Of a stretch of DNA of 64,000 nucleotides, positions 1,649-22,576 are shown one piece after another (the stretch's first letter is position 1; each line of letters begins with the position of its first letter). Under the pieces are notes generated by a model that saw only the letters and a program-made list of their open reading frames with translations, ran no database searches and had not been told where the DNA came from. Source of the DNA: a virus. Its lineage: Duplodnaviria; Caudoviricetes. The stretch is taken from the IMG/VR virus record IMGVR_UViG_3300035208_004923, positions 160,001 to 224,000 of that record; one strand, written 5' to 3'. Both the position numbers and the translations under genes were made by a program.

Positions 1649-2740
1649 TTATTTAGTTTCTAAGTATAAAATGTAATTATTGAATTCATATAAGAATTTT
1701 GCAATATCTTCAATTGTTAAAGTTCCGATGTTAGAAATTCTAAATGTATTTGTATTCGATACTTTTCCTGGATATATTGTAATGCCTCTTTCCTTTAAAA
1801 AGTCATGCATATCATCAAATGAATATTTTGGATGTTCCAAATCAAAAAAACTTGTTATGATAACAGACGAATGCTCTTCTGGCGTATATTGTTTAACGCC
1901 AGCAACTTTCATGCCGTTAATCAACAACGTTCTATTATTTTTATAACGATTATGTCTACCGCCAACAGTTTCACTTGTTAATTCCTTTATTGCTTGATAA
2001 AAAGCATATATTGTTTGAACAGGTGGTGTAAATCTTAATTGCAAATTTTTCTGCATGTAATCCCATTGGTCGTATACATCAAAATAACAAGTTCTTGCTT
2101 GACCTTTTAGTTCCATTAATTTTTCTCGTCTAGCAATTATAAATCCAATGCCTGCAAATCCTTGTATGCATTTATTTGAACTTCCTATTAAAAAATCAAC
2201 ATTACTTTTTGTCATTTCTATTTCATATGCACCAACAGTACTCATTGCATCAATAATAAATGTCTTGTTATTTTCTTTACATAAATTTCCTATAAAGTCA
2301 ATATCATTTAGTATTCCTGTTGTCGTTTCGCAATGAACTGTATACACATGTGTTATATCCGGATTCGTTTCAATTAATTTAGATATCATTTCATAATTTA
2401 AAACTTTATCGCCACAGTCAATTTCAAACAAACGTATAGCGTATCTTTTTGCAATTTCTGCTGCTCGTCTACCGTATGCACCGTTTGTAATAACTAGTAG
2501 AAATGAATCTTTCGGCAAAGATGATATCATCGCTTCTATTGCACCGGTACCTGATGAACCAAATAAAATTGATTCATATCGTAAATGGTCAGTTGCAACA
2601 AATGTTGGCAAATGTACCATTATTGCATTCATGATACCACCAAATTCACGTTCTCGTGGACAAATATCGTCAACAATTTGTGCTTGCTTTACGCTTTCTG
2701 ACGTATTTGCAGGCCCAGGATTTAAAAGAATTTGTTTCAT
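1649..2740 (-). CDS. aepZ: 2-aminoethylphosphonate transaminase (PhnW/AepZ family, class V PLP enzyme)
   Basis: LLNPGP, HCETTTGILN, DAMS, SSNKCIQG (PLP lysine), RFTPP and IYPGK motifs. Lies in an operon with pepM and ppd. Confidence 0.92.
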   Translation of the reverse strand: MKQILLNPGPANTSESVKQAQIVDDICPREREFGGIMNAIMVHLPTFVATDHLRYESILFGSSGTGAIEAMISSLPKDSFLLVITNGAYGRRAAEIAKRYAIRLFEIDCGDKVLNYEMISKLIETNPDITHVYTVHCETTTGILNDIDFIGNLCKENNKTFIIDAMSTVGAYEIEMTKSNVDFLIGSSNKCIQGFAGIGFIIARREKLMELKGQARTCYFDVYDQWDYMQKNLQLRFTPPVQTIYAFYQAIKELTSETVGGRHNRYKNNRTLLINGMKVAGVKQYTPEEHSSVIITSFFDLEHPKYSFDDMHDFLKERGITIYPGKVSNTNTFRISNIGTLTIEDIAKFLYEFNNYILYLETK

Positions 2741-3462
2741 TATAAGATATTGTATAAAAGTGGGAATACTCTATTAACTGCTTTATAGTAATGAATAAGA
2801 TCATCGATTTCACACCATACATAATCAGTTTTCTCTAAATTGAATTGTACGCCATATTTTTTAGTTGCTTTAACTAAAACATGTTCATATTCAATTCTTG
2901 GATTATTTTTTAAGATATCTTCAGCGAATGGTAACAATACATTATTAACAGTATTTGCTGAAATGTGAGAAATTCCTAAAAATGAATGCTCGTGATTTTC
3001 CAAATCAGATGTTAATTTCGATACATTACTCATGCAATTGTTGAAAGATTCAACATAAACTTCATCATGATCTTTTGTTATGAATGATGTTACAATAATG
3101 TCTTTGTCGTTACCTATATGGTCAAGAATCTTTGCATCATATAAAATATCACTTTCAACAATCGTACATGCACCTTTCACTTCTTTCAAACCTACATACA
3201 AAGAATATCCGCTTCCACTGTCAACGTAATTGCCATTATGAATTGTTGACACTTCTTTATATCCTTTGGCAAATTTTTCGTAGTATTCAGATTTATGTCC
3301 TGTTACAATTAATATCTTTTCATAACCTTTTTTCAATAAATTTTCAACGGACATTTCAATCAATGATTTTCCGCAGATTCTTAAAAAGCCTTTTGGCATA
3401 GTTTCAGTTAGTAAACCGACCCTGCTTCCAAGACCTGCTGCTAGTATGATTGCTGTTTTCAT
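2740..3462 (-). CDS. NTP transferase, LicC/PntC-like (probable phosphonate cytidylyltransferase)
   Basis: ILAAGLGSR...PKG N-terminal signature, ESDILY and WCEIDD. Stop overlaps the aepZ start. Confidence 0.85.
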   Translation of the reverse strand: MKTAIILAAGLGSRVGLLTETMPKGFLRICGKSLIEMSVENLLKKGYEKILIVTGHKSEYYEKFAKGYKEVSTIHNGNYVDSGSGYSLYVGLKEVKGACTIVESDILYDAKILDHIGNDKDIIVTSFITKDHDEVYVESFNNCMSNVSKLTSDLENHEHSFLGISHISANTVNNVLLPFAEDILKNNPRIEYEHVLVKATKKYGVQFNLEKTDYVWCEIDDLIHYYKAVNRVFPLLYNIL

Positions 3463-3467
3463 TATTT

Positions 3468-4601
3468 TTATTTTTTTAAAAATTTCATTAATCGTTTCTT
3501 AACTTGTACTGGTGTAACTGCTGGTCGACCTAAAGGATCTTTTGAACCAGGAACTGTTGGCACAACAATTAGCTTCAATGTTCTTTCTTTATCTTTTTTC
3601 CAATTAGTTAATGCATTTTCTAATTGGCCGTATGATCTAACAATAGCATTTTGGTAATTCATAGAAGACGCTAGTTTATTCCATGATACGTTATTCGATA
3701 ATGTAGCTTGTCCGCCTGTTGTGTCGTGAACATTATTATCAAGTAATATATGTAGCATGTTTGATGGCGCATATTCTGCAATCAATGGAAGAACACTTAA
3801 ACGCATTAATGCAGCACCGTCTCCATCAATGACATATACTTTTTTATCTGTATTCAACGCAACACCTAAGCCAATTGCACCAGCGCAACCCATCGAACCG
3901 ACCATATACAAGTTATTTTTCTTATCTTTTATATCATACAATTCTCTGCCTGTCATTCCTGTTGTTGCGATATAAACAGCATCTTTGTCAATTGTTGAAA
4001 TTGATTTAAGTACCTCATATCGAGTCATGTCCATAACTTCTTGATTCAATGTATTTGCAAAGCCAATTGGCGCAACATCTTTTAATGTTTTTTGCTTTGG
4101 AATTAACTTAACAGAATTAAAAGTATCTTTTTCAACAAGAATAAAATATGGCATATTAGTTTTTGCCATTATTGCTTTTGCTTCTGCTATCTGTTGTTTT
4201 GCAATTTCATCATCTTTCGATAAAACAACGGATTTCATTTTCATTGTTTTTATCAATTTTGCAGTAATCACGCCCATTAATTCATGTTGAGGTTCAGTGT
4301 CAGAACCGGTTCGCATACTAACAAAAACCAATGATGGAATTTTGAATATGTAATTTAATGAAGTAAGTGGGGAAACTGCATTTCCGAATCCGGAATTTTG
4401 CATCATGACAACTGTATTTCGACCTGCTATGTGTGCGCCTGCAGCTATTGCAATTGCATCACCTTCATTTGCTGCATTGTAATATTCACAATCATTTTGC
4501 GCATAATTAATTAAACTTTTCATCCAAGAGCAAGGAACTCCTGTAAAAAAATCAAATCCTTCTTGTTTTAAAAAATCTCCAAATTTTTGTGTGTCTACCA
4601 T
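3468..4601 (-). CDS. aepY: Phosphonopyruvate decarboxylase (ThDP-dependent)
   Basis: FFTGVPCS, ANEGDAIA, MQNSGFGN, EPQH, GSMG, DGDGA and NNVHDTTGGQ motifs. Confidence 0.93.
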   Translation of the reverse strand: MVDTQKFGDFLKQEGFDFFTGVPCSWMKSLINYAQNDCEYYNAANEGDAIAIAAGAHIAGRNTVVMMQNSGFGNAVSPLTSLNYIFKIPSLVFVSMRTGSDTEPQHELMGVITAKLIKTMKMKSVVLSKDDEIAKQQIAEAKAIMAKTNMPYFILVEKDTFNSVKLIPKQKTLKDVAPIGFANTLNQEVMDMTRYEVLKSISTIDKDAVYIATTGMTGRELYDIKDKKNNLYMVGSMGCAGAIGLGVALNTDKKVYVIDGDGAALMRLSVLPLIAEYAPSNMLHILLDNNVHDTTGGQATLSNNVSWNKLASSMNYQNAIVRSYGQLENALTNWKKDKERTLKLIVVPTVPGSKDPLGRPAVTPVQVKKRLMKFLKK

Positions 4602-4615
4602 ATTATGTATTTTAA

Positions 4616-5911
4616 TTATTTTGTTCCTGGTATTAATTCAAGTATATCATTTATACTCATGCATAATGTTTTATCAACATTTTCTGATTTGCCGTCTAAA
4701 AGAATTCCTTTTGCTGTTTTTAGCATTGCTGGATATGCAGAACGTAATAAATGATTTGCATAAATCACTATATTAGCACCAGCTTTTTCAAATTCATCAA
4801 TATGAATTTTATTGAAACTAGAAGGAACTACAACGATAGGTGTTTGTTTATCGAATTCTCTAAATCTTTTAATAAATTCAAATATTTCTACACCGTCTTT
4901 ATTTCTTGAATGTATCATGATAGCATCAGCACCTGCGTTAACATAAGCAAACGAACGTTCTAGTGCATCTTCTAATCCTTTTTCTAAAATTAAACTTTCG
5001 CATCTAGCAATGATCATAAAGTTTTTTGTTATCTGCGCAGCTTTACCCATTTTTATTTTATGACAGAAGTCACAAATACAATCCTGCGACTGGTCAACAT
5101 CATTTCCAAATAATGAATTTTTCTTCAAACCAGTTTTATCTTCAATTATTGCAGCAGATACGCCAACACGTTCTAAACTTCGAACTGTAAATTGAAAATG
5201 TTCAGGTTTACCGCCTGTATCGGCATCATATATCATCGGTTTTGTTGTTACCTCAAATATTTCATTTATTGTTGTAAGACGAGCAGTTGTATCAACAGCT
5301 TCAATATCAGGTTTGCCTTTCGATGTAGAATCGGTCAAAGAACTTGACCACATGCCATCAAACTGCGTGTTATCAATTTTTGTGTGTTCGACAATTAATC
5401 CGCTTAAAGCATTATGAACTTCAAGTATTCTTAGAATTTTCTTTTCACGCAATAATCTTCGCAATGAATTACTTCTAACTGTTGATGTTATACCTAATGC
5501 AGTTACTTGTTCTTTTATATTGATACTGTTGATTTCTTTTGAATATTCTGGCTCAATTAATTCGCCATGAATTTCTAATATGTAATCTAATACTTCATCT
5601 CTATATTTCTTCAGGTGATTTGTTTTCCAATCAGTTCCATGAACAACTATAGTAGCACCAATTTTTTTTAAATTTGGTAGGCATGATGCAGATTCTTGTG
5701 GAATAATTTCAGACACGCACCCAATTGCGGCAATTGCAATTCTTCTATTTTCATATGATAAATAAGGAACGTCGTTTATTTCCCTACATGCATCTTCAGT
5801 TAGTAATCCTACAATTACTTTGCCATGTTTACTTGCTTCTGTTAAAATTGATACATGACCTGCGTGTATCAAATCAGCAATCATGCTAACATAAACTATT
5901 GTTTCATTCAT
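4616..5911 (-). CDS. aepX: Phosphoenolpyruvate mutase (PepM/AepX) with an N-terminal cytidylyltransferase domain
   Basis: Diagnostic EDKx5NS motif (EDKTGLKKNS), plus WSSSL and DADTGG. N-terminal DLIHAGH is a HIGH-type motif. Confidence 0.95.
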   Translation of the reverse strand: MNETIVYVSMIADLIHAGHVSILTEASKHGKVIVGLLTEDACREINDVPYLSYENRRIAIAAIGCVSEIIPQESASCLPNLKKIGATIVVHGTDWKTNHLKKYRDEVLDYILEIHGELIEPEYSKEINSINIKEQVTALGITSTVRSNSLRRLLREKKILRILEVHNALSGLIVEHTKIDNTQFDGMWSSSLTDSTSKGKPDIEAVDTTARLTTINEIFEVTTKPMIYDADTGGKPEHFQFTVRSLERVGVSAAIIEDKTGLKKNSLFGNDVDQSQDCICDFCHKIKMGKAAQITKNFMIIARCESLILEKGLEDALERSFAYVNAGADAIMIHSRNKDGVEIFEFIKRFREFDKQTPIVVVPSSFNKIHIDEFEKAGANIVIYANHLLRSAYPAMLKTAKGILLDGKSENVDKTLCMSINDILELIPGTK

Positions 5912-5931: not shown

Positions 5932-5973
5932 AATAAAAATTAGCATAATTTTTTAGATTATGCTAATTTTATT
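5932..5973 (-). terminator. Intrinsic terminator downstream of nrdJ
   Basis: Inverted repeat AAAATTAGCATAAT / ATTATGCTAATTTT with a T-run on the minus strand. Confidence 0.65.
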
Positions 5974-5981
5974 ATATATTC
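5972..5981 (-). promoter_or_regulatory. Putative late promoter GAATATATAA upstream of the phosphonate operon
   Basis: Exact copy of a 10-mer found 11 times in intergenic positions upstream of minus-strand genes. Confidence 0.6.
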
Positions 5982-16109: not shown

Positions 16110-16445
16110 TTATCTTGTTTTTCCTTTTTGAATAACATCTGCAAAAACAGAATCTTCAGTTTTGAACAAATTCTTCAAATTATAAGTTTTTCGTAATTTT
16201 TCGATATCATCGAATGACGTTATCTTATGTGCAGTTACAATGTGCGGTCCGCTACTTGTACGTGCATCTTTATTTGCATCATCTTTATCTTCCCATACGT
16301 ATGCGTATTTTCTGTCTTGGTCATTCGTATAGTAATGCATAGTTATATAAATTGGATAATGCGGTTCAGTTTTTATGCCAAGAGTGTATTCATATATTGA
16401 ATTTTCTTTTATATAGTCGTCTAGACTAGGTATTCTTCGGTTCAT
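16110..16445 (-). CDS. Hypothetical protein with the leader motif
   Basis: Begins MNRRIPSLDDYIKENS. Confidence 0.7.
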   Translation of the reverse strand: MNRRIPSLDDYIKENSIYEYTLGIKTEPHYPIYITMHYYTNDQDRKYAYVWEDKDDANKDARTSSGPHIVTAHKITSFDDIEKLRKTYNLKNLFKTEDSVFADVIQKGKTR

Positions 16446-16451
16446 AATAAT

Positions 16452-18410
16452 TTAAAATTTTAATGCAGAAATTATTTGGTGTATAGGTGCAAATGCGCCT
16501 GTTAATTTGAACAATCTTCCACCATAATTGAAACAAATGCCTTCAGATGGAAATATTGCATCGATGCCACCTGCATTTTCCAATGATTGTAAATGAATTT
16601 TCAATTTTGCTAAAGCGCCTTCATCGCCTGATTTATTTATATCGTCTATTGCTTTATTAAAGTCAGCTTTTAATTGATTAAGTGATGCATCAGGATTTGG
16701 CGCAAGTATTGTTTGTAAACTTTTAATTATTGCAACACCTACTTGTACAAAAATTGTTCCAACGATTCTTTTTATTTCGCCACCTATTTTTGCGGCGTCC
16801 TTTGCTTCAAAATCTTTGGCCCATGCTAATGTTTTTTCATCAGGAATGTTATCTTTGTTTATTCTAAATGATTTGTCATCAGTTAGCCATCGGCCAATCA
16901 AACCTGCCAATTGAACATCTGTTAATGAATAACCCATTTTTAATATTCTATCTTTCCATTCAGCAGTATAAAAATCTAAGAACGTGTTATTATCTTTAAA
17001 ATTCCATTTTGCTTTTATTTCATCAACCTTTGCATTGAAATACGTTTTTTCTTTATCAAAATTTACGCCATCTTTTAATTTAACATAAGGCGAGCCTTGT
17101 ATTTTAAATGTTTTTTCGATATCTTTATTAATATCTGCTATCATTTTTGCAAGCTTATCTGCCGCTGCACGATCTTGTGATAATGGATTGCCGGCTGTAT
17201 CATATTCAGTCACGTTATGAAATACCATTAAGTTTGTATTGTACGGTACCGTAATCATTGCAGGCGAATAGATTACTTCAAGATGCATGAAGCATTTTCC
17301 ATTTTTAAATATACTTTCAAGATCTTTTTTGTTAAGATCTTTTATTGCATCTTCAAGATCATCGAATGCAAGGTTATATGCATCAGCAATAGGTCCTCTA
17401 CCTGCAAATTTTGCCATTAACGCATTTTTATCAACTGCGTTTTCACCAAAATTCTTATATTCACCTTTATTTCTTGCTGTAACAATTTTTCCATCTTTGT
17501 AACTAATTGCAATTGTAACGCCATCAGTTTTTTCAACGGTATTCTCTAATTTGCCTGAAAGTCCAAGATTTATAATTTCTTTCATTTGTCCAAATGTAAT
17601 TGTCAAATCATCATAAACATGTTCAAGATGACCGAATGCGCCGCCTTCATCAATTCCTGCAAAACCTTTAAATGCATTTGGACCCATAAACATTCCATCC
17701 AAGTCTTTCCATCCATTCGGATAATATTCCGCGTAATCTTTACAAACGGCAGGATGCGTTTCATTAGATTCTTTTATTGAATTTAATTTAGTATTCAATA
17801 AATTAAAAATGCCTGCATCTAGTTTCTTGTATATTTTTTTAAAGAAATTTTCTTTATCTTTTATTGCGTGGCTATTATCTCTGAAATAGTTGCGTACTTC
17901 TGTTGCACTCATGTTAACAGATGGCGAATTTTCTTGTACATAGATATATCCTTTTGTTTCATATCCATCAAGTTCAACATTGTCATTGTATATGTCAAAG
18001 TATTTTCCTCTTGTTAATCGTTCAGCATCTTTACCACCAAGAACAGTAATCAATGCAGTATCTTTTGTAAACATTGTAAGCAATTCGGTAGGTGCATAAG
18101 TATTTTTTACTTTAACAATTTTTGATGGCGGTATTTTAAACATTTTTGTCATTATCAATTTTTTCTCATCAAAAGACAAGAAATGATTATCGTCATACGC
18201 TGCCTTGCCTACTTCAGATTGATTAAGATCTCCGGTTGTTATGTATACATTTTCTTTGCCAAATTTTGCAACTAATTGTTCATATATATCGAAATGCCCG
18301 ATATGAAAAGGCTGAAATTTGCCACTGTAACTAACAACAAAATTTCCATTTTTATTTGTTTCATTAATAAATTGTTCCAGCGTTTTAAGTTTGCTTATTT
18401 CTATTTTCAT
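16452..18410 (-). CDS. Fusion of a HIGH-family nucleotidyltransferase and a ligase-fold (DUF6267-like) domain
   Basis: GKFQPFHIGH and MSATEVR in the N-half; GHLEHVYDD, VEKTDG, SEGICF and FKLTG in the C-half. Leader KLKTLEQFINE. Confidence 0.75.
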   Translation of the reverse strand: MKIEISKLKTLEQFINETNKNGNFVVSYSGKFQPFHIGHFDIYEQLVAKFGKENVYITTGDLNQSEVGKAAYDDNHFLSFDEKKLIMTKMFKIPPSKIVKVKNTYAPTELLTMFTKDTALITVLGGKDAERLTRGKYFDIYNDNVELDGYETKGYIYVQENSPSVNMSATEVRNYFRDNSHAIKDKENFFKKIYKKLDAGIFNLLNTKLNSIKESNETHPAVCKDYAEYYPNGWKDLDGMFMGPNAFKGFAGIDEGGAFGHLEHVYDDLTITFGQMKEIINLGLSGKLENTVEKTDGVTIAISYKDGKIVTARNKGEYKNFGENAVDKNALMAKFAGRGPIADAYNLAFDDLEDAIKDLNKKDLESIFKNGKCFMHLEVIYSPAMITVPYNTNLMVFHNVTEYDTAGNPLSQDRAAADKLAKMIADINKDIEKTFKIQGSPYVKLKDGVNFDKEKTYFNAKVDEIKAKWNFKDNNTFLDFYTAEWKDRILKMGYSLTDVQLAGLIGRWLTDDKSFRINKDNIPDEKTLAWAKDFEAKDAAKIGGEIKRIVGTIFVQVGVAIIKSLQTILAPNPDASLNQLKADFNKAIDDINKSGDEGALAKLKIHLQSLENAGGIDAIFPSEGICFNYGGRLFKLTGAFAPIHQIISALKF

Positions 18411-18482
18411 TTTATTGAATTATATTATGTGGATAATTAGATTCTGACATACTTGAAAATCTTCTAATTCTCATATTTTCTA

Positions 18483-19286
18483 TTAGTAACGGCCGTATGC
18501 AGATTGATTTTCAAAAGAACCTGCTATGAATTCTTTGCCATCAACTTTAACAGTAACAACCGATGACCATCTTTGTGTATCTATTTGAACAAAACCGATA
18601 GAGTTATGAATAGTGTCACTACTAATGCTTGTGTTATTTTTATCAATTTCAATTTTTGATGTAGGTGTAACTTTTACTTTATTTTTCTTAAGTCCGTCTA
18701 GCGTCATTGTTAATACTTTAGTAAAATCTGAACCAGCATAGGCAGAATAACTTGTCTTTCTTGCTACAGCTACTGCTACATTTAATAACGATGCAGCTGC
18801 ATCAGATGTCCATGATTTTAATACATTTATAATATTTGTTAATGCATCTCTCATTGCAGGTAAATCTTTATTTGCTGCTTTAAATTCAGGTTCTATTCTT
18901 TTTATTGCATCTGACAAAGGACCTTGCGATCTTCCGCCTGGCGCAGCATCAGTGTATAAAAATGCAACAAATTCAATAATAGGTGCAGATGCAACACCTG
19001 TTTTTAAATATGTAGTTGCAGATTTAATAACTTCTTTAAATTTTTCAACTGGTGCTTCATCTCCAAAGTATGTATATCGCAATCCTGCTGTTGGCCATCC
19101 TGCTTCATAATGAAACAATGAACATACTGTTCTTATTTCACCTTTTAAATAAGTTTTAAATGTAGTTGTTTTTTCAAGACCGTGACGAGTTGCAAACTCA
19201 AGTCCTGATTCCTCAATTGCTTCATTAATTGCATTCGATTTTTCTATGAATATAAATTCATTCAATGATGGTATTCTATTTTTCAT
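18483..19286 (-). CDS. Hypothetical protein with the leader motif
   Basis: Begins MKNRIPSLNEF...AINEAIEES. Confidence 0.7.
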   Translation of the reverse strand: MKNRIPSLNEFIFIEKSNAINEAIEESGLEFATRHGLEKTTTFKTYLKGEIRTVCSLFHYEAGWPTAGLRYTYFGDEAPVEKFKEVIKSATTYLKTGVASAPIIEFVAFLYTDAAPGGRSQGPLSDAIKRIEPEFKAANKDLPAMRDALTNIINVLKSWTSDAAASLLNVAVAVARKTSYSAYAGSDFTKVLTMTLDGLKKNKVKVTPTSKIEIDKNNTSISSDTIHNSIGFVQIDTQRWSSVVTVKVDGKEFIAGSFENQSAYGRY

Positions 19287-19306: not shown

Positions 19307-20467
19307 TTACTTGATTATGTTATGAGGATAATTAAATTCTCTATTTTGGAACTTTAATATTTTTTCGTTACGAATATTGCCACTGCAAATATCTATTGCG
19401 TTCATTATCGTACAATCATTTGACCATGATTCTTCGCCAATCATTAGCGTTTCTATGTATGGAATTAAACTTAAAGAAATTTCTCGTGTTGCTGAATTCC
19501 ATAAATAAGATGGCGAATGGTCAACTGAATAGTATGTTATATTTTTTCCTACTTTAAATGTAGGATCATCGAATGATGTTGGTTTTGCAAAATAAAATCC
19601 CATGTTCTCATCACAACTTATATCAATTATTGATGTAAATTGTTTTAGAGAATTTGCTTGTTTTATATTAGATATAAACATCATTGGGTTGGTGACATCT
19701 TGCAATACGCCATTAACTATGATATCACTACTTCGAAGTTCTTCGATAAGATGTGATATTTTTCCTTCTGTTGAAATAACTGAAAGGTAATCAGTTTCAG
19801 GAAAGTTAATCATTTGGTTATAATATACGTCTGGGTTTTTATCTGCTATTAAATGAACAGGGCGTTTTGTGAATACATGAATGTTATTAAATCCCCGTCC
19901 TTGTAATGCATAAATTGCACCTTTACTGACAGAGCCGTATCCTAAAATAGATACTTTTTTTCTAGGTCCGTACATTCCGTCTAAACCTTGTAATCCTAAA
20001 TAATGAATAACACCTGCATATCCTGCAAGTTCATTGTTTCGATAAAATATGTGCAATGATTTTTCTCCATTATTCCATGTATGCATTTCTTCCCATGCAA
20101 TTAAAGTCAATTTTTTTGCAATTGCAATCTCAGCGATTTCAAATTGTTGAATTGCATGAGACCAACCGCAAAGAATTTGGCCGTCTTTCATTTGTTTTAA
20201 ATCGTCAATTACAGGTTTTGGCAATATGATCATATCACACATTTCAAATAAAGAATCACGAGATACAATATTGTAACCTGCTTTTATAAAATCTTCATCA
20301 GGAATTCCGAAATTTGTTCCGTAATTTTCTTCTAGATAAATTGAAGATATTAAATTATAACTTATCAATGATAATAAGTGTTGCGGATGAATCGGCAATC
20401 GTTTTTCGTTTTCCTTTTTAGATGTTTTAAAAAGGCCAGTCTTTAAATATTTATTTGCCGTATTCAT
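19307..20467 (-). CDS. ceo: N5-(carboxyethyl)ornithine synthase (AlaDH/PNT superfamily)
   Basis: KENEKRLPIHP, AWEEM, FYRNNELAGYAGV, GYGSVSKG Rossmann motif, DISCD and VDHSPS. Confidence 0.85.
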   Translation of the reverse strand: MNTANKYLKTGLFKTSKKENEKRLPIHPQHLLSLISYNLISSIYLEENYGTNFGIPDEDFIKAGYNIVSRDSLFEMCDMIILPKPVIDDLKQMKDGQILCGWSHAIQQFEIAEIAIAKKLTLIAWEEMHTWNNGEKSLHIFYRNNELAGYAGVIHYLGLQGLDGMYGPRKKVSILGYGSVSKGAIYALQGRGFNNIHVFTKRPVHLIADKNPDVYYNQMINFPETDYLSVISTEGKISHLIEELRSSDIIVNGVLQDVTNPMMFISNIKQANSLKQFTSIIDISCDENMGFYFAKPTSFDDPTFKVGKNITYYSVDHSPSYLWNSATREISLSLIPYIETLMIGEESWSNDCTIMNAIDICSGNIRNEKILKFQNREFNYPHNIIK

Positions 20468-21554
20468 CTATGATTGGATATTTTGCTAATATTCCTTCAT
20501 AATCCATTGGCCATTTTGAAGATAATATTTCTTCTTTGTATTCAGGCCAATAAATTGAATGACCTTGTGACATATATTTTCTCCAAAGTTCTTCTTTGAA
20601 CGAATCTGGCAATTCTCTTCGGTAAAAATCTTTATAAACTTCCATGTATACTTCACAAAGTTTTACACTTCCTAATCCTGTTGCACTATTCGTTTCAAGT
20701 ACCCATATTTTACCTTGTTTATCAACAACCACATCCAAAGACCAAAGGCCAAGTTCAATTTCTTTTCGTACTTCACCAGATATTCGATAAATCTCATTCA
20801 TGAAATCATCAGGAATTTTATTCATATCTTGATATGCATATATGAATTTTACCTTTTCATCAACTTTTTTTGTTCGTATTGATTGGTCTTCTTTTATTGT
20901 TGGTACACGTTCATTTATAATAAAACATTTATCATTTAAAAATACGCATCGGTATTCTCTATCAAAATCAATGAATTGAGAATATAAATCAAATGATTTT
21001 TCTTCTCCTCTTAATTCAAATGTTTCAGGCTCTTTTTTAAGATCTGCTGCTGTATCAATTTTTTTTATGCCTAATCCCGAATGTCCTTTTGCTATTTTTG
21101 CGATAACAGGAAATCCCACAGCACCTTCGATTGCTTCTTCTCGTTTAAAAACTGTTTTTGGAAGCCAATCGCAATTTGCAAATATTTTCGAGAATTGTAC
21201 TTTATCGCCTGATTTTAACATTGGTTCAGGAAGATTATACATTCTTTTTGGATTTACATTAAATTTATTAATAAATTGTAAAGATTCCTTTGAATTACCG
21301 CCATAATAAATAACTGGCAGATTTCTAGGTATAATGATATCATCACGTTTTACATCTGTTGCTGTGTAATATGATATGTACAATTGGTCAATTGCTGCTT
21401 TATTGATTGCTGCTTCTCTTTCTGATGTATCTCCTGATAATGCTGCAAGATCTGCTCCTTGTCTGATGAAAATAATTTTCTTGTCGAATTGGTCACTTAA
21501 ACCTAATGTAATGAATTCTTCAAGCGTTTTTAGTTTGCCTAATTGTATTGCCAT
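20451..21554 (-). CDS. ATP-grasp ligase (RimK-like) with the leader motif
   Basis: DK, LPKT, FPVIAK, GHSGLGI, QFID, EYR, SLDVV and VLETNS motifs. Leader KLKTLEEF. Confidence 0.82.
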   Translation of the reverse strand: MAIQLGKLKTLEEFITLGLSDQFDKKIIFIRQGADLAALSGDTSEREAAINKAAIDQLYISYYTATDVKRDDIIIPRNLPVIYYGGNSKESLQFINKFNVNPKRMYNLPEPMLKSGDKVQFSKIFANCDWLPKTVFKREEAIEGAVGFPVIAKIAKGHSGLGIKKIDTAADLKKEPETFELRGEEKSFDLYSQFIDFDREYRCVFLNDKCFIINERVPTIKEDQSIRTKKVDEKVKFIYAYQDMNKIPDDFMNEIYRISGEVRKEIELGLWSLDVVVDKQGKIWVLETNSATGLGSVKLCEVYMEVYKDFYRRELPDSFKEELWRKYMSQGHSIYWPEYKEEILSSKWPMDYEGILAKYPIIDEYGK

Positions 21555-21575
21555 GCTGCTTTTTTGATTATTTTA

Positions 21576-21585
21576 TTATATATTC
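21576..21585 (-). promoter_or_regulatory. Putative late promoter GAATATATAA
   Basis: Exact motif about 22 nt upstream of the ATP-grasp start. Confidence 0.55.
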
Positions 21586-21599
21586 AGAATAATAAAATG

Positions 21600-21630
21600 A
21601 AAAAAGCAGTACTCTCTCGAATACTGCTTT
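21600..21630 (-). terminator. Intrinsic terminator
   Basis: AAAGCAGTA-N10-TACTGCTTT with a minus-strand T-run. Confidence 0.7.
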
Positions 21631-21647
21631 AATATGTTTAATGCTAA

Positions 21648-21908
21648 TTATTTATTTAGCATACCGATGATTGCTCCATAGTCTAAACCATCGTCTGATT
21701 TTTTCTTTAACAAACCTGTGATAACTTCATCAGCTTTTGCTTGGTCATATGAATCGCCATGCATTTTTTTCAATTTTTCTTCAGCCCAAGATTTGAATTC
21801 TTCATCAGAATTAATAGTGCCTTCTAAAATTGCTTGTTCTTCAGCTAATTTATCTGCTTGTAATTGTTCATTTACGAACTCGTCGATTGATAAGATTCTT
21901 CTTTTCAT
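21648..21908 (-). CDS. Small leader-motif protein, paralog of the C-terminus of the adjacent gene
   Basis: MKRRILSIDEFVNE leader and the shared DEEFKSWAEEKLKKMHGD domain. Confidence 0.75.
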   Translation of the reverse strand: MKRRILSIDEFVNEQLQADKLAEEQAILEGTINSDEEFKSWAEEKLKKMHGDSYDQAKADEVITGLLKKKSDDGLDYGAIIGMLNK

Positions 21909-21925
21909 TGTATGATATTTATTTT

Positions 21926-22576
21926 TTATTTATTTAACATTCCAATGATTGAACCGTAGTCTAAATCATCGTCTGATTTTTTCTTTAATAATCCAGTGAT
22001 AGTTTCGTCAGCTTTTGCTTGGTCGTATTTATCACCGTGCATTTTTTTCAATTTTTCTTCAGCCCAAGATTTGAATTCTTCGTCTGTTTTTATATCAGCT
22101 TCAAGAATTGCTGATTCTCTTAAAGATAATGGACCTTTATATTTTTTGATTTGTTTATCTAACTCATCAAGTTCTTTTTGTAAATCTGCTGGTGTTTTTT
22201 GTTTTAATGCTTCTTCTTCAAGAGCTTTTTGCATTGCTTGTAATTTATCAGCAGTTTCTTTTTTCTTTGCAATTGCTGCTAAATATTTATTATCATCAAT
22301 AGTTTCATCTTCCTCATCAATAGTATTAGCTGCATTTTTTGGTCCAACACCTTTAACCCAGCCTTCTTTAATTTTTGCAAAAAATTCACTGCGTTTTGTG
22401 TGATGCAATTGAGACATATGCGAAACACCAAAAGAATCTAAAGTTGAATGCCAATGTTTTTTGTATTGGTCCTTTAGACTTTCTGCTTCTTCTAAAAGTT
22501 CCAATTCAGAAACTTCAGATTCAAACATTTTTTCTTTTTGAACGTATTCGTCAATAGATAATATTTTTCTTTTCAT
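21926..22576 (-). CDS. Leader-motif protein, multi-domain
   Basis: MKRKILSIDEYV leader. The C-terminal ~60 aa are nearly identical to the neighbouring gene. Confidence 0.75.
   Translation of the reverse strand: MKRKILSIDEYVQKEKMFESEVSELELLEEAESLKDQYKKHWHSTLDSFGVSHMSQLHHTKRSEFFAKIKEGWVKGVGPKNAANTIDEEDETIDDNKYLAAIAKKKETADKLQAMQKALEEEALKQKTPADLQKELDELDKQIKKYKGPLSLRESAILEADIKTDEEFKSWAEEKLKKMHGDKYDQAKADETITGLLKKKSDDDLDYGSIIGMLNK

Follow-up and report, generated by a model that had tools for sequence, protein, structure and literature searches.

Several described systems border on the gene pair reported here. N5-(carboxyethyl)ornithine synthase (CEOS; EC 1.5.1.24) of Lactococcus has the two-domain AlaDH/PNT fold and, with NAD(P)H, condenses a 2-oxo acid (pyruvate) reductively with the side-chain amine of ornithine or lysine, and the ATP-grasp ligases RimK, LysX and ArgX serve in the glutamylation of S6 and in LysW carrier pathways. 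One TupA-like ATP-grasp has been proven to act as a glucuronate amidoligase (PMC11800379), and ATP-grasps of the R2K clade, which occur sporadically in jumbo phages, are predicted modifiers of proteins (Iyer et al., 2021, PMC7824862). In phage T4, about ten N-terminal residues target a protein to the capsid and are followed by an (L/I)-x-E site that is cut by gp21 (PMC9026906; PMC3012670). Here we describe two overlapping genes, one for an ATP-grasp amide ligase and one for an AlaDH/PNT-superfamily NAD(P)-dependent dehydrogenase, in a 64,000-nucleotide stretch of viral DNA (Duplodnaviria; Caudoviricetes; hereafter the window), which comprises bases 160001-224000 of the 425,361-bp contig IMGVR_UViG_3300035208_004923 of IMG/VR. 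We found no published description of a phage pair of an ATP-grasp and an alanine-dehydrogenase-type enzyme.

The ligase gene (20451..21554, 367 aa) and the dehydrogenase gene (19307..20467, 386 aa, without an N-terminal leader) both lie on the minus strand, and the 3' end of the former overlaps the start of the latter by 17 nt (20451..20467), as a first-pass annotation made from the sequence alone had stated. The ATG at 20467 is the sole usable start of the dehydrogenase, since a TTA codon stands where the bacterial start aligns, and from the overlap we infer that the two genes are translationally coupled. The same annotation had set the pair behind a terminator and a promoter-like box of its own, and both are in place: a terminator-like hairpin with a 12-bp stem, a 4-nt loop and a T run (21603..21630, minus strand) ends the upstream gene for an 86-aa protein, and the box GAATATATAA (21576..21585, minus strand) stands 22 nt before the ligase ATG. 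The window contains 11 copies of GAATATATAA, all on the minus (coding) strand, where 0.98 would be expected (0/100 shuffles reach 11), and ten of them lie no more than about 60 nt upstream of a start codon. As some copies precede long open reading frames (ORFs) in a region of baseplate and tail-fibre-like genes, we read GAATATATAA as a probable late promoter.

The association of the two genes was followed in 79 IMG/VR loci and three other loci with a ligase homologue, among which 23 ligases scoring at least 400 bits were classed as close and 21 could be judged downstream. A dehydrogenase gene is found in 20 of these 21 informative loci, and in 19 it abuts the ligase gene, with gaps of -32 to +5 nt. 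This abutting or overlapping junction has been kept while the ligases diverged to 46-71% identity. Additionally, each of the 17 IMG/VR contigs recovered with a dehydrogenase profile also holds the ligase. The pairing is conserved and does not reflect chance. A mere accident of history, with the two enzymes serving unrelated functions, would fit the two exceptions among the 21, namely one related phage in which the dehydrogenase gene lies 1.7 kb away on the opposite strand and another that lacks it, as well as the more than 50 loci with distant ligase homologues (at most 41% identity), in which no dehydrogenase occurs. We nevertheless consider this explanation very improbable in view of the co-occurrence counts, the retained junction and the recurrence of the same enzyme-class pairing in bacteria. 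In deposited phage genomes the two genes are scarce: among 50,697 of them, the dehydrogenase gave one weak partial match and the ligase two metagenome-derived records only, and a search at the DNA level with the pair found no counterpart in the phage collection.

The dehydrogenase contains both AlaDH/PNT domains (PF05222, AlaDh_PNT_N, 59.4 bits; PF01262, AlaDh_PNT_C, 27.6 bits; both above cut-offs), and its columns Arg23, Lys84, His104 and Asp286 are invariant; a PHROG search matched it to no family. Its homologues number in the thousands, with the best-scoring 51-67% identical, and their sources call them either 'alanine dehydrogenase' or 'N5-(carboxyethyl)ornithine synthase'. Named bacterial homologues come from many phyla at 44-57% identity, and NCBI gives the CEOS name to bacterial homologues that are 40-57% identical; plasmid homologues so named are 41% (E. 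coli) and 40% (Streptomyces) identical. The first-pass annotation had likewise called the enzyme CEOS, a name that did not hold up. The phage protein shares the two-domain fold of CEOS, and the chemistry we propose for it is the same, but the plasmid protein of L. garvieae that is annotated as CEOS has 313 aa rather than 386, is 27% identical (74 bits), lies across a very long tree branch (length about 10) and is encoded without a ligase neighbour. Alanine dehydrogenases are at a similar distance (about 24% identity, 65-77 bits), and assignment to alanine dehydrogenase itself was rejected on the equivalog model TIGR00518 (62.8 bits against a cut-off of 391.85). Because the protein fails this equivalog and shows so little identity to either the lactococcal protein or the alanine dehydrogenases, it belongs to a distinct AlaDH-fold family, for which the CEOS label is an annotation that is too specific and does not imply orthology.

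Sequence models place the putative ligase loosely within ATP-grasp. It matches Dala_Dala_lig_C (26.3 bits) and YheCD (25.1 bits) in Pfam and PHROG 2599 (RimK-like, 'S6 glutaminyl transferase'), stays below family level for RimK_fam TIGR00768 (28.3 bits; cut-off 143.4) and below threshold for the R2K-clade models (PF18299, PF14243 and related ones; R2K_2, 16.5 bits against a cut-off of 26.2), and gives no match to TupA (PF14305), a family in which bacterial neighbour ligases reach as many as 150 bits. The active site has kept its residues (Lys153 for ATP binding; Asp274 and Glu287-x-Asn289, the Mg-binding acidic and E-x-N positions), and the catalytic columns are invariant in 22 homologues. A profile search of 1.84 billion representatives returned a modest family of 106 clusters at E<=1e-30, whose distant members pass the thresholds for R2K_2 (39-43 bits), YheCD or TTL; the fusions in the family are tandem ATP-grasps only, with none to a dehydrogenase or an acceptor domain. 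An AlphaFold model of the ligase has a predicted local distance difference test (pLDDT) score of 91, with the first 20 or so residues low and detached from the fold, and Foldseek retrieved Ddl, LysX and RimK at template modelling (TM) scores of about 0.5. Judged from this model, the nearest structures are ArgX, LysX and RimK, with Ddl and L-amino-acid ligases close as well. The ligase thus shares fold and catalytic residues with RimK, LysX and ArgX, but differs from them in an extra C-terminal helical region of about 55 aa and in its N-terminal leader. With the R2K-clade enzymes it has in common that it is phage-borne and a predicted protein modifier, yet PMC7824862 mentions neither a dehydrogenase partner nor a leader.

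The leader belongs to a set that extends well beyond the ligase. About 30 unrelated ORFs of the phage start with the motif M-x-x-R-I-P-T/S-L-D-E-F-I-N-E, and a loose version of it occurs within the first 30 residues of 36 of the 457 contig ORFs, compared with 2-6 in internal 30-residue windows. In the window, leader-bearing ORFs start, for example, at 16445, 18410, 19286, 21554, 21908, 22576 and 23696, and the same leader type heads gene runs in distantly related IMG/VR phages (loci L012, L021 and L031). In many phage lineages the ligase homologues begin with clean leaders of the KLFE(E/Q)F(I/L)xE type, such as MKHIKLFEEFINEA, most of which read INE, IYE or IFE at the end; the neighbours of these homologues are tagged as well, and the adjoining dehydrogenase never is. 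The leader looks like a portable capsid-targeting tag. The first-pass annotation had noted a packaging-type leader on the ligase, and one is indeed present, KLKTLEEFITLG (21495..21554, minus strand; the first 20 or so residues), although this copy is a weak, degenerate variant that reads FITLG and lacks the usual I-x-E end.

The phage leader probably resembles the T4 leader sequence itself. The contig also encodes a gp21-family prohead protease (Peptidase_S77 match, 45.5 bits); the match lies at contig positions 282172-282525, within an open frame of 689 aa that far exceeds T4 gp21 in length. Similar to the T4 internal proteins and Alt, the phage therefore combines a short leader, mostly ending in I/L-x-E and common to unrelated proteins, with a gp21-family protease (PMC9026906); unlike them, its putative cargo would be a biosynthetic ligase with an untagged small-molecule partner enzyme. 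Two other tagged products, of 86 aa (21648-21908, minus strand) and 216 aa (21926-22576, minus strand), have near-identical C-terminal stretches of about 40 residues (KMHGD.YDQAKADE.ITGLLKKKSDD.LDYG.IIGMLNK) and look like paralogous putative cargo proteins.

The combination of dehydrogenase and ligase is also widespread in bacterial glycan loci, which goes beyond what the first-pass annotation had considered. The nearest bacterial homologues of the dehydrogenase (50-57% identity) are encoded in surface-polysaccharide loci with Wzy, flippase and glycosyltransferase genes, directly beside ATP-dependent amide ligases that are TupA-like or RimK-like ATP-grasps, PP-loop enzymes (SGGxDS) or Asn-synthase-type enzymes, and the genes often overlap. 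Three homologues that were looked up directly lie in loci with Wzy, flippase and GT2 genes and adjoin TupA-like or 'sugar-transfer' ATP-grasps. In an E. coli plasmid capsule locus, which also has genes for a flippase, glycosyltransferases, an NAD-dependent epimerase and a nucleotide-sugar dehydrogenase, the dehydrogenase gene overlaps an upstream hypothetical gene by 8 nt. Across 80 genome loci, 64 same-strand neighbours within 250 nt were scanned for Pfam families, and the recurrent ones were TupA ATP-grasp (6), RimK ATP-grasp (4), Asn synthase (3), AsnA (1), PGA_cap (2) and Sacchrp_dh (6); polysaccharide flippases and Wzy recur too. A TupA hidden Markov model built from five sequences found ligases in just 9 of 69 bacterial loci, and many neighbours have no Pfam family. 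The clusters without a family include a PP-loop enzyme with the SGGxDS motif and a further RimK-like ATP-grasp. In the bacterial loci L091-L114, the CEOS-like dehydrogenase recurs with the PP-loop protein, which has a Cys cluster and no Pfam match, with a CapA/PGA_cap-like protein and with a RimK-like ATP-grasp. The cassette of CEOS-like dehydrogenase, PP-loop, CapA-like and RimK-like proteins, present in many phyla, would be an uncharacterised system for tailoring a glycan or polyamide.

In a maximum-likelihood tree, the 21 phage dehydrogenases fall on one side of a fully supported branch, and the bacterial sequences nearest to that branch are the ligase-linked ones; a cluster of neighbours of about 450 aa, taken to be the Sacchrp_dh genes, is confined to a derived bacterial clade. 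When the window proteins between 10 and 26 kb were compared by BLASTP with three bacterial loci, the dehydrogenase alone was shared. An hhalign comparison of the phage ligase with a bacterial RimK-like neighbour aligned the core ATP-grasp only (probability 90%), and there is therefore no evidence that the ligase was transferred together with the dehydrogenase.

These parallels raise the possibility that the phage pair forms an amide between the carboxyl of a sugar acid and an amino acid of the opine type, in a polysaccharide of the host surface or in a glycan built by the phage, which may alter the cell surface (superinfection exclusion) or decorate the virion. Such structures exist in Providencia O-antigens, which contain galacturonic acid amides with N-epsilon-(1-carboxyethyl)lysine as well as alanopine amides (PMC10609480), and in the literature we found no paper tying CEOS-like genes of polysaccharide loci to them. 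The bacterial cassettes are themselves uncharacterised, the single characterised relative of a part being the TupA-like glucuronate amidoligase Cj1438C of Campylobacter jejuni. Besides the position of the closest bacterial homologues next to amidoligases, glycan decoration can call on a 2-aminoethylphosphonate pathway with cytidine monophosphate (CMP) activation and on two GT2-type glycosyltransferases of the phage, which suggest wider tailoring of glycoconjugates. We still regard it as unlikely. The phage ligase belongs to a different ATP-grasp family from the bacterial partners, without a TupA match and with protein-directed ligases as its nearest structures; its virion-cargo-like leader and the promoter box indicate the head, not the envelope; and no uridine diphosphate (UDP)-sugar 6-dehydrogenase was found on the phage contig. 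Unlike the bacterial cassettes, the pair lies among replication and tagged cargo genes, not among glycosyltransferases.

We favour, tentatively, a reading in which the product of the dehydrogenase is an N-carboxyalkyl diamino acid, which the ligase attaches through an amide to a macromolecule, probably a protein, that is associated with the head or belongs to the host. As a tailoring module of two enzymes, the pair would be expressed along with the genes of the virion. In a first step, the untagged dehydrogenase would use NAD(P)H to condense a 2-oxo acid (pyruvate, possibly 2-oxoglutarate) reductively with the amine in the side chain of lysine, ornithine or another diamino acid, and the amine donor could be free or already ligated to the acceptor; the product would be an opine-type N-carboxyalkyl amino acid. 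In a second step, the ligase would activate a carboxylate as an acyl phosphate and join it in amide linkage to the alpha-amino group of the amino acid. As the ligase resembles ArgX, LysX and RimK, which are directed at C-terminal Glu residues of proteins, and carries a capsid-targeting-like leader, the acceptor would most likely be a protein rather than a free metabolite, either one within the prohead or one that is encountered in the host after injection. A head-linked macromolecular acceptor is preferred because of the nearest ligase structures, the conserved cargo-type leader and the virion-type promoter box, and the recurrent joining of the dehydrogenase with ligases of varying family, in bacteria and phages, argues that the ligase handles the product or the substrate of the dehydrogenase. 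Modification of virion or host proteins, an idea already put forward in the first-pass annotation, remains our best guess. A bolder version, in which aquatic T4-like and huge phages load the ligase into the head by means of a capsid-targeting leader and, with the cytoplasmic dehydrogenase, install a new post-translational modification, seems doubtful to us; carboxylates of Glu, Asp or C-termini would then carry an N-carboxyalkyl-lysyl or -ornithyl amide, in cargo or scaffold proteins that are packaged or, just after injection, in proteins of the host.

Several observations weigh against modification of a head-associated or host protein by the pair. The annotated lactococcal CEOS is not a closer relative of the dehydrogenase than alanine dehydrogenase is, and because a derived subclade of the dehydrogenase family sits beside saccharopine-dehydrogenase-type genes, both the keto acid and the reaction direction proposed here are tentative. 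The ligase shows no detectable kinship to the bacterial partner ligases beyond the superfamily, and it is uncertain whether the window copy is packaged, since its leader has no I-x-E cleavage motif. An enzyme that uses a small molecule made late would suit a purely post-injection role poorly. Lastly, the nine neighbouring products include no LysW-like carrier and no acidic or Glu tail, the rest of the genome not having been searched.

That no acceptor macromolecule was found among these nine products would be expected if the pair made a free small molecule, a soluble opine or an opine-containing dipeptide, that could be a signal, an osmolyte, a sink for nitrogen or for redox balance, or a counter-ion accompanying the packaged DNA. 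The lactococcal CEOS acts on free amino acids, and Ddl and the L-amino-acid ligases are also close structural neighbours of the phage ligase. A purely cytoplasmic enzyme, however, would have no need of the cargo-type leader that is conserved on the ligase in many lineages, and the top structural matches are protein-directed ligases, so that we hold a free product to be quite unlikely.

The genomic setting bears on a further explanation. The pair is embedded in a replication and nucleotide module (UvsW, UvsY, primase, gp32, dUTPase, PolB and ribonucleotide reductase (RNR)), and in 32 loci of other phage clades a distant ligase homologue follows topoisomerase II genes, with a divergent thymidylate-synthase-like gene and two deoxynucleoside monophosphate (dNMP)-kinase-like genes directly preceding it. 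By itself or together with the dehydrogenase, the ligase might accordingly extend an amino-acid-type substituent on a base derived from a hydroxymethyl pyrimidine, and the phage has a thymidylate-synthase-like gene of its own, with kinase-like and MazG-like flanks and a GT2 gene about 3 kb away. We consider such DNA hypermodification improbable: the adjacency may just reflect a conserved T4-like module order, and the leader and the promoter box are unsuited to an enzyme acting at replication. To our knowledge, no ATP-grasp or AlaDH-fold enzyme takes part in the described pathways of thymidine or cytosine hypermodification. The thymidylate-synthase-like gene (70.9 bits) lies outside the window, at contig positions 241231-247223 (L007), together with its flanking thymidylate-kinase-like and MazG-like pyrophosphatase genes and the GT2 glycosyltransferase gene; an MptE-like gene adjoins the kinase. 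By analogy, the cluster recalls T4 gp1, gp42 and gp56 and hints at modified pyrimidines in the phage DNA.

Returning to the window, the pair is followed on the minus strand by genes for tagged products of 267, 652 and 111 aa (16110..19286). Between the pair and about 16.1 kb we found no further GAATATATAA box and no convincing terminator, and these three genes are therefore probably on the same transcript as the pair. The 267-aa protein belongs to no known family, and Pfam and PHROG gave nothing usable for it or for the C-terminal part of the 652-aa protein. The latter (16452-18410, minus strand) begins with a HIGH-type nucleotidyltransferase domain (CTP_transf_like), and its remaining 420 or so residues show a weak match to an NAD-dependent DNA-ligase adenylation domain (E 0.015) and no confident family. 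Its gene occurs near the pair in seven related loci only; it adjoins the pair in the closest relatives (L001 and L003) and lies about 3 kb upstream in L010, L012, L013 and L046.

Among the products of the contig as a whole are T4-like proteins of replication and morphogenesis, namely UvsW, UvsY, primase, gp32, a RuvC-like resolvase, dUTPase, a split family-B polymerase, RNR and a baseplate wedge protein. Together with the gp21-family protease, these proteins identify its source as a huge tailed phage. It has 53 tRNA genes, its ORFs are nearly all oriented on a single strand, and binning placed it with a 1.6-Mb genome whose GC content is about 30%. Two tRNAs found by ARAGORN, with anticodons TCA and CTA (contig positions 8783-8856 and 125640-125713), could be suppressors of UGA and UAG; code 11 reads the ORFs of the window normally. 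A complete 2-aminoethylphosphonate pathway is encoded at 1649-5911 of the window (minus strand), behind a GAATATATAA box at 5972-5981. Its genes specify a fusion of cytidylyltransferase and phosphoenolpyruvate (PEP) mutase (431 aa), a thiamine-diphosphate (TPP)-dependent phosphonopyruvate-decarboxylase-like protein (377 aa), a MobA/NTP-transferase (240 aa) and a class-V aminotransferase (363 aa).

The pair described here is nearly absent from deposited phage genomes, yet fixed in a whole lineage of uncultivated large phages. If the ligase is head cargo and handles an opine-type amino acid, the system would amount to a new chemistry of the virion or of host takeover and to a portable combination of tag and enzyme; were the bolder version to hold as well, phages would make a protein modification of a new class. 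For the unexplained carboxyethyl-lysine and alanopine that decorate O-antigens and capsules, the bacterial parallels supply a candidate at the level of genes. The presence of the pair and a phosphonate pathway in one window suggests that the small-molecule tailoring set of huge phages may be wider than has been recognised.

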